From Rhizodiscina lignyota (lineage: Eukaryota): a DNA stretch of 64,000 bases. A program made the translations under genes and the position numbers. Numbering within the stretch: the first letter of the stretch is position 1; each line of letters opens with the position of its first letter. The DNA is taken from assembly GCA_010015805.1 (NCBI GenBank), contig ML978122.1:2142453-2206452 (forward strand), in the 5' to 3' direction. Below, piece after piece: positions 17,080 to 44,427 of the stretch. Under the pieces are notes generated by a model. The model did no database searches. It saw only the letters and a list, made by a program, of their open reading frames with translations, and was not told where the DNA came from.

Positions 17080-18491
17080 GCAATGTACTCCGCAAGTCCC
17101 AGTATTGTTCTATATGGCCGGTTACTTGCTGAATAAGACTTCGTGTGTGCGAAAGGATAAGGAGTGCCGAGTGTTAGAAGGATGTTGAGTATGGCCCGTG
17201 CGAGTGTTTGTGGTAGTAGTGAGACTGAAGAAAATGAAACTTGTGCTCTACGTTGGCACGATCTGTGGAAATCCGGTGCATAGTTGCAGCAATGCTCTGC
17301 GAACAGTGCGAGAATCACGGAAAAATGGTCATTCACAATCCAAAGGATGCTCAGATGACTGAGTGGGCTTGGCGGAAGAAAGTTCCTCTGCAATGTAAGA
17401 AAGGCTTGAAGACTGTGCAGATGTGTTGGGAAGAAACGATAACCGCAATCTAACAACTGCTGGAGCGCTCATGCATCCATAAGAGAAGAATAGCTGTCCT
17501 AGCTACAATTAGAGGTACGACAGCCGAGTAGACTCAACGGAAGAACAATTCCTCTTCATTATCCAGCGAGAGGAGAGCAGAGAGGCCGAAGGAGGTTGAA
17601 ATTTAATTAAAATGTGGCGTTGAGGTGGCTGAGCTATCAAACGCCACAACCGTTCCCGGAAGGCCTTACGATCCGTCAGACTTCAACCTCATCGTACGAA
17701 GCTTCAGTATTAGTATTCGACAAGTCTATTAATTGAGCTGAATTTGGACGAAGAAGCGTAAGCCAAAAGACTGAGCATGGTCTCGAACCATGCGTGTACT
17801 ATTAAGTCCTTCTCCTCCTGTTAGTGCCCTACAGAACGGGTTTTGTGCACATCATTCCGTCTAGTCATTCATTTGGCAAGTTTCCGCAAAATCTTCCCTT
17901 ACATCTCTGCGGGGACGTCGGCAGCATAAATTAGGACAAGCTTCAGCATCTATGCTTGCTAGCGATCTTGATTTCCGTCCAGTCAGACCTGTGCAGGGCG
18001 TTGACAGCTGGCGAGATCCGACCACTTCCGGCTGGCCCACAACCTTCTAGGACGACTGTTTCGAGATCTGACACTTTGAAGAGAGCCTCCATGATTACGA
18101 AAAGAGCTAGGATCCGTGTCATATCCGAAACTTTCTCAGTATTGTTGCTAGCCAACCAAATTTTCGTCTTATCCGTGGATGAAGATGACGAGAAGGAGAG
18201 TGTGGATCTGCTCAGATGCATCGTCGTTGAGCCTCTTGAAACTCGCATAACTAATCTAAACACAGCAATCTGCGGCGGTAGATGATGAGCCGGAGGTAAT
18301 TATGCTCCGCATTGTATGTGTTAAGGGCATAGGTTGACAGCTCAACGTCATGGCACTCCGCCGCATGTATCACTCACGCGACGTCTTTCCGTTTGTATCC
18401 GGTAACCCCTTTTCCCTGTCTCTTTACATCAGTACCCTTCAGTTTCGTTCTCTTTCTTCAAGAGTATTTCGATTTGATTGCGTATCGTGCG

Positions 18492-36968: not shown

Positions 36969-39284
36969 ATGCTTCACGAGATCCTACTTTCACTTTCCGG
37001 CCACCCGTCACCGCTCTTCGGCGACGACGGCAAGACCGGTGCTGTAACGGCCGATGATTTCCCTCTCGTGTCTCCACCAGAGGCGGCGCTGCTCTCTTCT
37101 GTCGGAAGTCTGTCACGAAGACACAGAGAATTACGCGCACATGCATCGCGAATATCTTCGTCACATCCGTCAACAATATGTCGGGCGATCGCCAGCTCCA
37201 TAATATCCACTCATCTCGCTAGATTCAAGAGCAAAGTTCTGGATGTCGAGCAGAGTATTCTCAAAAGGGATGCAAGTACTGTCGCAGCTTACGACATTGT
37301 TCCTTTGTCTGGAATTGTAGGGGAATTTGAGGGCTGGAAGAGGAGGATGGATTGGTATTGGGGTATTAGTTGTCTGATCCACCCTCTATCGTTAGTGCAA
37401 TCGAAGCAGCTTTGCTGTGGCGCGGATATCATAAACACACTACGAACCGAGTCGCAGACTGGATATCCGGACATCGAACAGGCAGCCTTAGAACTCAGCA
37501 AAGTCGCGGAATCCGCTTGGCTGCGACAACTGTCATCCTGGGTTCTATATGGGAGGCTCCCCACATTTGGAAAGGACGATTTCTTTATACGGCAACAGAG
37601 CCATCAGCATGGCTCCGATTCCGAATTCGTTTGCGACAGCAATCTAATGCCAAATTTCGTTTCTCCAGATACGGCTGCCTCAATTCTGTTCATCGGAAAA
37701 TCCCTCAATCAGATACGATCGAGAGGCCTCGTAAACAACGATCACACACCTGAGGGTACTGTCGCTTCTGAGATGGAACTGCTCCCAATCCATCTCAAAT
37801 ATCTCTCCGAGCTCACATTTCCACTTACAAGCGCCAGCTTGTCTGCCGCGATCTCATCAATCCGCATGTCTCTCTCTCGAAATACACTCCAACGCCTCCT
37901 GCCGCTTTCGAAGATCGTCGAAGTTCTCTGCGTTTTTCAAGAATTCTTCCTACTGGGACGAGGAGAATTCGCGACTAGCCTTGTGACCGAAGCTGATGAA
38001 CGTTTGAGTTCACGTAACCAAAGCGGTTCAGGTGGCGATGGCTTGAGAGGCTTGATCCTTAAGGACCCCGAATTGGCAATTATCCTCAATCGCTCATTCG
38101 CCACGCTTTCCGCACTCGTCATAGAAGATGATGAGGATAGTGATTCAGATTCCACGCTTGAGCTAGCTCGCTCTTTAATTCGATTCAACGTATCAAAGCC
38201 CTCGAAGTCTTCCATAGCCGCTTTCCATGACATCCTTCTCCCTGTCCCAACATCTTTGACTCTCCTCACGCCGTCTCCTCTGGATCTCTTTCTTTCACCT
38301 GCGGACCTATCAGCATACTCAGACATCCACGCTTACCTTCTCTCTATACGCCGCGCGCATCTACATCTAACTTCAGTGTGGCGCCTGACGTCCATGCGCC
38401 GGGACCATCCAGCTCCGGCAGGCCCACCAATCAGTGCATCCAAACACGGAGCGGAAATTCTGCGACAGCGACGAGCAAGGAAAAATAAGCGCGAGAAAGA
38501 CATGCGGAAGGTGTGGGCTACGAGCAGCAAAGCCGTCTTCTTCCTCTGTGAATTGGTCTCTTATCTGGAAGGCGTAGTTGTCAAAGACGCATGGGCATAT
38601 CTTCTCTCATCAATCACTCGGAAGCCACAAGAAAGACCTTCATCTTCATCCTCGATGGAAGCCGGAAGAGACTTCTTGAATTCGAGCACGCGCACAACCT
38701 CCCGGCCTGAGAAATCTTTCCCCTACTCTCCGAGAACTGGCGATCTTGCGCCCGGTGCTGCCGACCCTACGGCTGAAGAGAATATGCCGCACGATCCCAC
38801 CGCACTAGCGAGCCTCCATTCTGCCTTTCTCACATCCTTGACCTACGCATTGCTCCTAAGTAATGCTCCGTTTACAAAAGAATTACGTCACCTTCTCAGC
38901 AACGTTGAGCACTTTGTAGCGCAGATAAAACGACTACAGGCGGCGCAAAGCAACCTCGACCTCGAAGAAGACGAGGGTGTCGTGGATGCACTAAATGACT
39001 GGAGAACTGAAGAGATCACTGTGTCGCGTGAGGTTGATCGAGCAAGGAAGAAAGTAGACGAGGGATGCAGGGCTTGTGTCGATGTACTGGGACAGGTCGA
39101 CAACGACGGGAGCCGTGCCGGCTTGCTAGGCGAAAAAGTGCAAGGAGCCGGTCAGACTGTCGGAACTTCGGGACAAGGCGAAATCAGGTGGAATTGGAGA
39201 CCGCCAGGCGTAGATCGCTTGCTGATGAAGCTAGAGTTTGGCAGCGAGAATGGATATGAAGGGGATGGCGACGATTCCCCATGA
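36969..39284 (+). CDS. Gamma-tubulin complex component, Spc97/Spc98 family (GCP4-like)
   Basis: MLHEILLSLSGHPS start, WLRQLSSWVLYG, ASILFIGK, EFFLLGRGEF, DRLLMKLEFG. Intronless. Confidence 0.88.
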   Translation: MLHEILLSLSGHPSPLFGDDGKTGAVTADDFPLVSPPEAALLSSVGSLSRRHRELRAHASRISSSHPSTICRAIASSIISTHLARFKSKVLDVEQSILKRDASTVAAYDIVPLSGIVGEFEGWKRRMDWYWGISCLIHPLSLVQSKQLCCGADIINTLRTESQTGYPDIEQAALELSKVAESAWLRQLSSWVLYGRLPTFGKDDFFIRQQSHQHGSDSEFVCDSNLMPNFVSPDTAASILFIGKSLNQIRSRGLVNNDHTPEGTVASEMELLPIHLKYLSELTFPLTSASLSAAISSIRMSLSRNTLQRLLPLSKIVEVLCVFQEFFLLGRGEFATSLVTEADERLSSRNQSGSGGDGLRGLILKDPELAIILNRSFATLSALVIEDDEDSDSDSTLELARSLIRFNVSKPSKSSIAAFHDILLPVPTSLTLLTPSPLDLFLSPADLSAYSDIHAYLLSIRRAHLHLTSVWRLTSMRRDHPAPAGPPISASKHGAEILRQRRARKNKREKDMRKVWATSSKAVFFLCELVSYLEGVVVKDAWAYLLSSITRKPQERPSSSSSMEAGRDFLNSSTRTTSRPEKSFPYSPRTGDLAPGAADPTAEENMPHDPTALASLHSAFLTSLTYALLLSNAPFTKELRHLLSNVEHFVAQIKRLQAAQSNLDLEEDEGVVDALNDWRTEEITVSREVDRARKKVDEGCRACVDVLGQVDNDGSRAGLLGEKVQGAGQTVGTSGQGEIRWNWRPPGVDRLLMKLEFGSENGYEGDGDDSP

Positions 39285-40584: not shown

Positions 40585-41306
40585 ATGAAGATCACACTTT
40601 CTACTATTTCGATTGCCACCGGCGTTGCGTCCCTGATCTGCCACGCCGAAGCCGCCGCATTCAGTGGGACTGGAAAAGCATCCACACTGAACGGCAGGCA
40701 GACCGCATGCTCAACTCACGATGGTGTCGCAACTTTCTTCTGCAGTGGAACAAGCTCCACTCAAACAACCGCTTGCGGAAATACGTTTGATCCAAACTCC
40801 CCGGGCGTTGCCATTAGCACCGCGCTCATTTCAGACTCTGATCAGCGTACGTTTCTCATGCTTTCCATTCCCAGTGGTAATGGTGCTGGGCTGATCGTGT
40901 TCCGGGTTATATAGTGGCACCATACTGCGGCCAAAACGTCGTTATTGGAAACACAGATAATGGCGGTAAGCAAACACATGCTGCTCCATCCTGAGTTGTC
41001 TGTACTGATAACACTCAGATCAGACTTTAGCACCGATTATTGATCTGTGTGCAACCTGTGACGAGGGACAATTCCAACTCGACTTGTCGTAAGTGTACTG
41101 GAGACTGACTTGTTTGAGCTTCGTGCTAACTTATGTGAGGCCTGCATCCTTTGCCGCGCTTGGAGGCGATGCGGATTGTAACCAAGGGGGTCAACTTAAC
41201 GTGAGTATTTCTCTGATTGTGACAATATTCAAAGAGAGATCAGGTACCAACTCTGCTGCAGATAAATTGGTTCCTCGAGGACGGCTCGAGCGCCTCGTGC
41301 TTTTAA
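40585..41306 (+). CDS. Small secreted Cys-rich RlpA-like double-psi beta-barrel protein (expansin/loosenin-related), 5 exons
   Basis: TATATAAA at 40461; signal peptide. Spliced product reads TACG..GVAIS..YCGQNV.I..IIDLCATC..LDLSPASFAAL..G.LNINW. Introns ~40847-40914, 40966-41018, 41089-41139, 41201-41261. Confidence 0.85.
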
Positions 41307-42726
41307 ATTTACAAATTCTGTTCATCGTCAGACTTATTCAACGGAATTGAATGAACGGAATGATTTCCACGGCGCTGACCTGATATATGTTGCCTTCTGG
41401 CGGGCCTCCGAGGCCCCGAGAAGGGGTGACTGGCACTGTTTTGCTTGAAACGTAGCAGAAAGACCAAGTTCCAGAACCAAATGTGATTAGATTCAATTAC
41501 CTACTATTCAGCTTCCATGCAGTGATAGATTAGCCCTGGTCGCGACGAATGATTCCTGATGTGCCACATGCCAATTTTGTACGATGGCGATGCTGAAGCT
41601 GTTCAATCGCCGACGTAGCCCTGATTAGTACCATAATCGTGTATCCCACGCATTGCCATGCTTAGTGATACATCTTGTATATCCTGAGATAACGGAGAGC
41701 AATGTATGAGAAGAGCTGGTGAAGGGCTTCTGAAATACCTAAGTATCCTATGGTTGCAGATTTTGAAAGTTGGATCGGCGGCACAGCACGTCAACGTGAC
41801 CATATCATTAATAGTTCCGGCAAGAGACACTGACTAAATTAGTAAGTAAGGACAGTGCAAAGGCTCAGCTCCGAGATTGGAACGGATGAGCTTTGAAAGA
41901 CTGTAAATGAGTTACGTTTTCTTCTGAAGTGAGTTGATGCCAGGGAGTAGCTAAATCGAGCTTTAGATCAAGATAAGATTAGAGTAGATCTTCCGATATC
42001 CGACTTCACTCGTCTCTCGTCTCATCTTTTCATGAGCCCTCACGCCTCTCTCGCGAGAAGCAAGTAGTATTGTATTGCAACTCCTCAATTTTCTCCAATC
42101 GTTGTCGCAAAGGAGTGTTGTTTGTGGTTGCGGATGGATTCTGTCCTGCTCGCTGTGGCAATTTCGACTGAAGAGATGAACATCCCAATGCTTACTAGCA
42201 GCGTAGTCAAACCTGTTCAGCTCTTTTTTTTTTTTATCCCTATCACATTGTTGACAGCCTTTAGGGTCATCAGTCTCGTAGCGACGCTTATTAGAGAGCA
42301 TCTTCTGTACGCTCGATGCGTGGCGATCTACTCCACCAAGGCAGGACGCTTGGAAATGTTCTTCTAGTTCACAAATGATCCTAAATGCTGTTATTTGATG
42401 CTCTCTATTCTTCTCAAGAGGAAAATCATTTAAAGAAAAGCGAAGCATTACAAATAATTTGCTGATCGTTATATCTGAAGGCGAGCTGAAAGTCCTTAGA
42501 ATCCTGTAATGCGCATAAAGATGAAAAGTGTACAAGAGTTATGTCAAGGCGATTTCATTTACGAGAAAAGATGAGAAAGAGTATCAGGGCTCAGTGTTAA
42601 GTTATTAAGGCGTGGTCGGTCGCAGCTTGCATGCGCTTGGGAATTCGCCCTGCGGTGATGCGGTGCGCTATTTATTTCATATGCAGTTATATACTAAAGT
42701 TAATTTACTAACTAACGGATCGAAAA

Positions 42727-42871
42727 GGCAGTATGGCTCAAGGGGTTAGCCCCGACTTCAACTGAGCTGTACTTGCTCCTCCTGTCACACCTCCAACCAA
42801 CCGGTTGGGGCTGTCAGGTCTGGGGAATAGGTTCGAATCCCGCGGGGTTGGGTCTATTCTTTTGCTTTTTT
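42727..42871 (+). ncRNA. Candidate RNA polymerase III transcript (A box, B box, oligo-T terminator), three-hairpin fold, not a canonical tRNA
   Basis: A box TGGCTCAAGGGG at 42734, B box GGTTCGAATCC at 42830-42840, T-runs at 42860-42863 and 42866-42871, AT-rich upstream flank. Hand-folded hairpins at 42727-42777, 42781-42818 and 42825-42859. Confidence 0.6.
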
Positions 42872-43485
42872 ATTTTCTTGATTTAATTTTTATAATTTTT
42901 TTTGGAGTGGAAAAATTTCTAATCGCGTGTTTCCTTCCCTAGTTATTGCCTATCTATCGCTTAAACCAACATTTTGCACCTCTCCAGTCCCTGACTCGCC
43001 TGTCCATATTTACAGCTTCCCTGCTGACCAGTGTCCTATCAGTCTCTAAACCCTTTACCTCCTGCCAAAGTCAGCGCCCCCTTTAGTAAATTGAATCTAA
43101 GTGTGAATATGGAGAGGACAGGTAACATCGACATAGCTCTGCGCGCTTCGGGTTCTCGTTGAAGGGACCTGGGAACTCAAAGGATGAAAAGCAAGTAGAT
43201 CTTCCACTCGCCACATCTATAGTTGCGCATTTACAAATTGAGATTAGTATGGTTCACCGTGAGAATTCAATGTGATGTAGTGACATTCGTGTCCAATGTG
43301 GAATCGCGAGTGCCGTAGCCTTCTTTTGTAGTAAACATTATGAAACAGTTCTTTTTCAAGTGTCAGTGACTGTATACATTAATTTTTGCAGAATATTGCA
43401 TGCACGATATATAAACACAGTAATTTCAGTGTATAATTGAGCGCGGTTGCATGGGTATCACTCAAGCAAAGCAATCGCTTCGCCA

Positions 43486-44427
43486 TTACATTCCAGCCCA
43501 TTCGAAGCAAAAGGCTCTCACTTCGCTCTGATCTCCGACTTCCTCTCCATCCTTACATTCGGTATTTCCGCCGATCATGAACGCCTTCTTCACTCCGGTA
43601 CCAAGTCTCCCGCCTCCCACAATCTCCATCATCCGAATATCGTCATCCCAACCCCTGCCCACAGCAAGGAAATGGCTGTGAAATCTTAGGGGATCACCAG
43701 GATATATAGAGTATTGGCACCCAAAGCGAAGCCCTGGCATCATGAAGTAGCCTTTCTGCTGCAAATGCTTGAAGAGCGGATAGCTCGACGGTACTTCTGG
43801 GAGCAGCACGGCAGGACTTAAGTCTGGCTGTGGAAGCGGCGGATACGATGTCGTAGGTGTGACGGCAAAAGAATTTGGCGGCTGGGCACTGGCTACTGAG
43901 ATTGTCGAAGCAGTGTCTTCAGTTTGCGAGGCATTCGAAAACAACGAGCTCTCCACGTCGTCCCCTTCCAATGTGGAGCCTGATGCATCCGTCTCCACAG
44001 AACCTTCTTTGTGCTTTCTGCGCTGCATTGCAATCTTCTTGAGGGCCTTTTCTTTCCTCTCACCTGCCTTTCTCCTGACTGCTTCTGCAGCCTCCATACT
44101 TTGTCTTCCAAGCAATGTCCTGAAAGCAGCCTTCTCGTCTTCACTTAACCCTGCCTCGAGCATTGCTGCTTTATGTTCTCGCGCATCATCGACAATATAC
44201 GCGTGCCCTTGTTCAGCAAGCAGGCGTGCCTCCTCGGGCAGCAACTGCAGCGGTAGACCAAGAAAGACACTCTGCTGCGGGATCTGCGGCAGCGAGCCAA
44301 GCAGCACGCCACAGATGTTGTATTGTCGGCGTATGTGAGAGACAACATTGATGTCGTAGAGGATATAATTCCCCGCTACGCGAAAGATTGGAAACGGTTC
44401 GGACACGACATCGGAGGAGGCAGCCAT
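43486..44427 (-). CDS. SEN34: tRNA-splicing endonuclease catalytic subunit Sen34
   Basis: GSLPQIPQQSVFLGLPLQLLPEEA, PGLRFGCQYSIYPGDPLRFHSH, GRLGTGVKK (catalytic Tyr/His/Lys). Confidence 0.95.
   Translation of the reverse strand: MAASSDVVSEPFPIFRVAGNYILYDINVVSHIRRQYNICGVLLGSLPQIPQQSVFLGLPLQLLPEEARLLAEQGHAYIVDDAREHKAAMLEAGLSEDEKAAFRTLLGRQSMEAAEAVRRKAGERKEKALKKIAMQRRKHKEGSVETDASGSTLEGDDVESSLFSNASQTEDTASTISVASAQPPNSFAVTPTTSYPPLPQPDLSPAVLLPEVPSSYPLFKHLQQKGYFMMPGLRFGCQYSIYPGDPLRFHSHFLAVGRGWDDDIRMMEIVGGGRLGTGVKKAFMIGGNTECKDGEEVGDQSEVRAFCFEWAGM

Follow-up and report, generated by a model that had tools for sequence, protein, structure and literature searches.

The element at positions 42727-42859 of the window (by which we mean the whole stretch of 64,000 nt analysed here), together with the T runs that follow it, carries the signals of a Pol III promoter of tRNA type, fails every test for a tRNA, folds into three hairpins and exists in several dispersed copies in its own genome. 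We interpret it, with about even confidence, as one copy of a low-copy, dispersed, tRNA-derived repeat of the Pol III type, in other words a SINE-like repeat. The window comes from the nuclear genome of a filamentous ascomycete, and the element, about 140 bases long, lies in an intergenic region. An earlier description of this DNA, made from its letters alone (the sequence-only reading), had pointed to a GC-rich island amid AT-rich DNA, and the GC content of 42727-42859 is indeed 0.58 vs 0.375-0.417 in four flanking stretches of 200 or 400 bases. It had also placed an A box at 42734, an exact B box at 42830 and T4 and T6 runs directly after, all of which are found at these positions, and had implied a Pol III promoter of the tRNA type, which the in silico analysis bears out as a probable type-2 layout with a TATATA motif added to the signals listed earlier. 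The neighbouring genes and the putative promoter and terminator elements are as follows.

36969-39284, + strand: ORF with gamma-tubulin-complex domains (PF17681, PF04130), flanking the element on one side.
42688-42693, + strand: TATATA, a possible upstream TFIIIB/TBP site, read from the sequence.
42719-42726, + strand: probable transcription start zone or short leader; exact identity with other copies begins here on the 5' side.
42734-42745, + strand: A-box-like TGGCTCAAGGGG, found by sequence reading and pattern search.
42830-42840, + strand: exact B box GGTTCGAATCC, found by sequence reading and pattern search.
42860-42871, + strand: T4, GC, T6, the probable Pol III terminator.
43486-44427, - strand: SEN34-type tRNA-splicing endonuclease gene (PF01974), flanking the element on the other side.

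These signals have the arrangement of a type-2 Pol III gene, with an A box near +8 to +20, a B box downstream and a T-run terminator (TTTT at 42860-42863 and TTTTTT at 42866-42871). The motif GGCAGTA begins at 42727, and the start site, which we place at 42719-42726, is presumed from the usual distance to the A box. Counted from 42719, the TATATA motif lies about 26-31 nt upstream, and counted from 42727 about 34-39 nt. A stretch of 84 nt separates the A box from the B box, more than in most tRNA genes, yet such a distance is tolerated by TFIIIC. Nucleotides that are invariant in tRNAs are kept in both boxes (T8, A14, G18 G19 and A21 in the A box; G53 T54 T55 C56, A58 and C61 in the B box), and CTATTCTTTTGC of the terminator region occurs in another copy too. 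The exact B box is the sole match in the 64-kb window even when up to one mismatch is allowed; at least one match of this kind was present in 71 of 100 shuffles, so the count alone is not above chance, and a looser consensus, GGTTCRANNCC, gave two matches in the window vs 0.99 expected. The A-box consensus followed after 60-90 nt by the B-box consensus was found once in the window and in none of 100 shuffles, for a pattern that was picked post hoc, after the site had been seen.

The sequence-only reading implied a single novel ncRNA gene, and this part of it does not stand, the element being multi-copy and dispersed in its own genome. Copies were surveyed in the contigs of the one public run found to carry the locus, a DNA run that is possibly the window's own source, by comparison with positions 42600-43000 at a likeness of 80% or more. 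This gave 19 contig pieces, nine at 99% or more, two at 95-99%, five at 90-95% and three below 90%. Details of individual copies and variants rest on the 8 of these 19 pieces that were listed, other copies being seen as fragments only. Both contigs of the locus itself break inside the element, the left one ending at 42741 and the right one beginning at 42818. Among the pieces listed are a 75-nt unitig of depth 662, identical to 42719-42784, and two unitigs of depths 501 and 307, both spanning 42764-42836; the flanks have a depth of 149-161, and the unitigs of the element are thus 2 to 4 times as deep as its flanks. At position 42805, all three covering contigs differ from this copy, with a summed depth of 961, a figure that does not give the number of copies; dividing unitig depth by flank depth, we estimate that there are approximately seven copies (about six others and this one) in three or more sequence variants.

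Dispersal to at least three other loci was observed directly. A contig of 52,427 nt ends in sequence like 42680-42739 (7 differences in 60) and one of 26,799 nt in sequence like 42687-42734 (4 differences in 48), in both cases with unrelated DNA beyond, while a contig of 74,336 nt contains 42804-42847 with 3 differences in 44 and then diverges. At least three other long contigs therefore end in or run through sequence that is about 88-93% alike. Another long record, among the pieces listed, has a different 5' part and joins the element at 42787. No second copy was found inside the window by blastn at a word size of 7. Relatives were sought in metagenome contigs with a two-block pattern and with a 22-nt 3' motif (0 matches each) and in genome contigs (0 matches). 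A further GC-rich stretch just upstream, at 42609-42672, is single-copy, with a depth of about 156, and lies outside the repeat.

We hypothesize that the element descends from a tRNA gene that kept its type-2 promoter and lost its cloverleaf. TFIIIC would bind the B box (42830-42840) and the A box (42734-42745), TFIIIB would be positioned upstream, possibly aided by the TATATA at 42688-42693, and Pol III would start near 42719-42727 and stop in the T4/T6 runs at 42860-42871, giving an RNA of approximately 135-150 nt with three hairpins. Spread was most likely SINE-like or tRNA-pseudogene-like, through retroposition of the transcript or through small DNA duplications. Transcription, descent from a tRNA gene and the manner of spread are all proposed from the sequence. 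The SINE-like interpretation is favoured by the dispersed copies, by the exactly shared stretch, which starts at the plausible start site 42719, and by a precedent in a mould. Many dispersed copies with target-site duplications, the mark of a SINE, had been named in the sequence-only reading as grounds for giving up its own proposal; dispersed copies are present, and no target-site duplication was found in a test of this copy, the 3' limit of which is uncertain, the best flanking direct repeat being 7 nt long, AT-rich and equalled or bettered in 334 of 500 shuffles. There is no tRNA-unrelated body and no A-rich, simple-repeat or LINE-like tail, the downstream DNA being T-rich on the + strand, and the T run directly after the B-box hairpin is gene-like, unlike that of a classical SINE. 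Although the exactly shared unitig begins at 42719, two other loci also share the upstream 40-47 nt (42680/42687-42739), including the TATATA, at 88-92% identity, and this counts against retroposition because copying of a Pol III transcript would omit it. Differences between copies that keep the hairpins, which would fit selection on the RNA, likewise count against a plain repeat.

In the literature on fungal SINEs and Pol III ncRNAs (supplements aside), we found no description of this repeat family. The only comparable case that we found there comes from Aspergillus fumigatus, which according to the available portions of the report has tRNA-related SINE-like sequences that occur in few copies, measure 140-493 bp, carry degenerate A and B boxes and lack a cloverleaf (PMC5063351). 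As described in those portions, AfuSINE2 resembles the present element in its filamentous ascomycete host, its size range, its low copy number, its internal A and B boxes, its 5' regions without a cloverleaf fold and its downstream oligo-T tract (PMC5063351). The likeness is drawn from the published description, and the present element differs in that no target-site duplication was found and it has no unrelated tail, and in having an exact B box, placed in the last hairpin beside the T run. If the SINE-like interpretation is true, the element would lengthen by one family the short list of small tRNA-derived Pol III repeats known from filamentous fungi, in a host lineage that apparently lacks close sequenced relatives. 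What is unusual is its compact, tail-less, gene-like form combined with variation that preserves hairpins, and it is a reasonable test case for a tRNA gene turning into a different RNA while its promoter is kept. It opens no long-standing question and its importance is modest.

The sequence-only reading had proposed a three-hairpin fold in place of the cloverleaf and had suggested a comparison with shuffled sequences as a check. The three hairpins are the predicted minimum free energy (MFE) fold (-57.1 kcal/mol, z -2.61), which was matched by 3 of 200 shuffles, and when 42727-42859 was folded separately the z-score was -2.69, with 41 Watson-Crick and 10 G-U pairs, vs -1.70 for the opposite (-) strand. 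The fold is thus real, if only moderately above chance, and H3 by itself is weak. The predicted hairpins are as follows.

42727-42777, + strand: hairpin H1, 14 pairs (3 of them G-U) with a bulged T at 42773, enclosing an inner small hairpin; z -2.94 on the + strand and -2.26 on the - strand.
42778-42824, + strand: hairpin H2, made up of an outer stem plus an 8-bp inner stem, CTCCAACC/GGTTGGGG, closed by the loop AACC; z -2.53 on the + strand and -2.32 on the - strand.
42825-42859, + strand: hairpin H3, containing the B box, with lower stem GAATAG/CTATTC and an upper stem round the loop GCGG; z -1.72 on the + strand and -0.76 on the - strand.

Because their individual z-scores are worse on the - strand, H1 and H3 prefer the + strand; H2, which includes the exact 12-nt palindrome CCAACCGGTTGG, is in essence a DNA palindrome.

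Variation between copies bears on a different explanation, which we regard as a tentative alternative: a lineage-specific, multi-copy gene family encoding a structured Pol III ncRNA that was exapted from a tRNA gene, with its hairpins under selection and a function that might be, for example, that of an RNP scaffold or a small-RNA precursor. The gene-like layout, with a T run right after the last hairpin and an upstream TATATA common to two other loci, would suit such a family, as would the better folding of the + strand (z -2.69 vs -1.70) and the share of G-U pairs (10 of 51). Among the pieces listed, H2 is the part that varies most between copies. The variant of depth 307 carries A42795G and A42796G together with T42805C and T42806C, so that the H2 pairs 42795-42806 and 42796-42805 are both altered on both sides, from A-T to G-C. 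A one-base indel between copies falls at 42785, which is unpaired in the fold, and a further variant has a different H2 tip that is again self-complementary when continued into the window's letters from 42804. In another copy the inner 3' strand of H3 differs while the 3' strand of the lower stem, TTTT and GC are kept (from 42847). The record that enters at 42787 has C and A vs T and G in this copy at 42768-42769, in H1, and two H1 wobble pairs would become Watson-Crick pairs there if its 5' arm is the same.

These differences favour the view that the hairpins matter, on the evidence of fragments and with one state that leaves a mismatch. The commonest variant (depth 501) has just one of these changes, C at 42805, which leaves an A-C mismatch with A42796, and the helix is thus not strictly kept. 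In addition, all four changed letters of H2 are transitions in a near-palindrome, and a strand-symmetric C-to-T process could make them without selection on an RNA. The z-scores are moderate (-1.72 for H3 alone), and neither an Rfam match nor relatives in the contig scans speak for a gene family. The sequence-only reading had argued that hairpins burying the promoter boxes imply selection; this gains some support from the two H2 pairs changed on both sides and from the conserved lower stem of H3, as seen in fragments only. As a separate observation, the 3' patch of this copy at 42844-42853, which is unlike the other copies, repeats the GGTTGGG of H2 (42803-42810) and could be a small internal duplication or conversion.

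The 5' part of the element is suggestive of its origin. Its first 36 nt, when set against the general tRNA layout, can be taken for the 5' exon of a type-II tRNA that has an intron and a CAA anticodon: a 7-nt acceptor strand, T8-G9, a 3-bp D stem (GCT/AGC) and a GG-containing D loop are followed by CCGAC and then by TTCAAC, with U33 and with CAA at the anticodon position. The stretch GTTGG at 42804-42808 could close the anticodon stem begun by CCGAC, and the two ends of the intron-like stretch are also sites of unitig breaks (42764 and 42804). The tRNA-like 5' layout and the position of these breaks together suggest that the ancestor was a type-II tRNA gene with an intron. The 3' arm of H1 (42763-42777) resembles an imperfect inverted copy of the first 14 nt, and the 3' third of the element retains only the T loop.

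Intron-bearing type-II tRNA-Leu(CAA) genes share with the element the acceptor strand, the 3-bp D stem, U33, CAA and an intron-like variable stretch, and differ from it in that its acceptor and T stems are unformed and all tRNA tests failed. A more specific proposal, which we consider rather doubtful, is that a probable Leu(CAA) tRNA gene of this kind gave rise to a small Pol III gene family encoding a three-hairpin RNA of about 140 nt, the helices of which would be maintained by compensatory mutations. The ancestral A and B boxes would then act solely as promoter and would by now be enclosed in new stems. If this were true, the family would be a fungal counterpart of cellular ncRNAs that arose from tRNAs and would have its own function, for instance as an RNP component or small-RNA precursor.

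A repeat acting at the level of DNA (foldback, MITE-like or segmental), containing pieces of a dead tRNA gene and giving no Pol III transcript, with hairpins that are simply palindromic DNA, appears unlikely to us. The near-equal folding of H2 on both strands and its exact palindrome would be expected of such a repeat, the likeness to two other loci reaches upstream of any likely start site, and the first terminator run is merely T4. However, H1 and H3 need their G-U pairs and are less stable on the - strand, the Pol III signals (TATATA, A box, exact B box and T run) stand in the right order, spacing and orientation, and neither terminal inverted repeats nor a target-site duplication could be seen.

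That the element is not a tRNA was clear on several grounds, in agreement with the sequence-only reading, which had noted the failure of the cloverleaf. Where a 7-bp acceptor stem is needed, GGCAGTA and GGGGTTG show no usable pairing, and the T stem ATAGG/CCCGC has, of the five pairs needed, two G-C pairs, one wobble G-U pair and two A-C mismatches. ARAGORN found no tRNA in the window, with or without introns allowed, and none in 9,441 versions of 42700-42880 from each of which a single segment of 8-124 nt had been removed, every such segment in turn; one intron or insertion at any position therefore cannot rescue the cloverleaf, and a tRNA split in this way was excluded. Only lowered thresholds produced calls, namely a 'tRNA-Trp' at 42591-42852 with a 168-nt intron at -ps80 and five further calls at -ps60, all of which were treated as noise. 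Neither ARAGORN nor Rfam found a tRNA gene anywhere in the window (1-64000). A working tRNA gene family of exotic architecture, with several introns or unusual processing, would make use of the tRNA-like first 36 nt, of GTTGG as the closing strand of the anticodon stem and of unitig breaks that may mark intron ends, but no strand complementary to GGCAGTA follows the T arm, two of the five T-stem pairs are mismatched and the Rfam tRNA model stays silent on 164 bases even at an E value of 10, so that, with the ARAGORN results, we regard this reading as highly improbable and close to refuted.

Nor does the element match a catalogued RNA, as the sequence-only reading had also held. At the Rfam gathering score there were no matches, and at E values up to 10 the only ones were HCV_SLVII (16.5 bits) and ctRNA_p42d (14.9 bits), both at chance level; over the 164 bases searched at E up to 10 there was no tRNA, tRNA-Sec, vault RNA, SRP RNA, RNase P/MRP RNA, U6 or Y RNA. 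The identities SRP Alu domain, vault RNA, Y RNA and snoRNA were dropped for want of an Rfam match. A selenocysteine tRNA, with UCA in a 7-nt loop and GGGG-TTAG-CCCC, was considered by hand and rejected, there being no 6-bp D stem and no anticodon stem. A scan for promoters and terminators of bacterial type gave no sites and is irrelevant to a eukaryote.

ZOD1 of Saccharomyces cerevisiae is a tRNA relic that still carries Pol III signals. Relics of this type resemble the element in being degenerate tRNA-like units with A and B boxes that are rejected by tRNA finders; they are single-copy and syntenic, whereas the element is multi-copy and dispersed. Vault RNAs (RF00006) are about 90-140 nt long, with Pol III type-2 boxes near their ends, a variable middle and several paralogues. 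The element is like them in its size, in its boxes near both ends, in its variable middle, in its paralogues and in a motif following the B box; it is unlike them in having no Rfam match at E up to 10 and in 5' and 3' ends that form no stem with one another in the MFE fold. The idea of a vault RNA was also set aside given that vaults are reported, in the part of the source available, to have been lost from fungi (PMC3762200).

Nothing indicates that adjacency to the SEN34-type gene is of significance for the element. The SEN34 protein has top named relatives (Aureobasidium and others) that are only about 53% identical to it and are scattered across several ascomycete classes, and its top other relative is 68% identical. 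Since the nearest named relatives are so distant, the source lineage is sparsely sampled, and the genomes of close relatives are probably not public, to judge from these identities. Elsewhere in the window, an ORF of 109 aa at 40585-40914 (+ strand) has a hydrophobic, signal-peptide-like N-terminus and several cysteines but matches nothing in Pfam; it may represent exon 1 of a gene for a small secreted protein. On the - strand, at 17760-17800, a second B-box-like site, GGTTCGAGACC, is outside any ORF of 70 aa or more and gave no tRNA or Rfam match; it sits inside a perfect 5-bp stem resembling a T arm (CATGG/CCATG), with TTTT 7 nt past the stem, and could be another tRNA relic.
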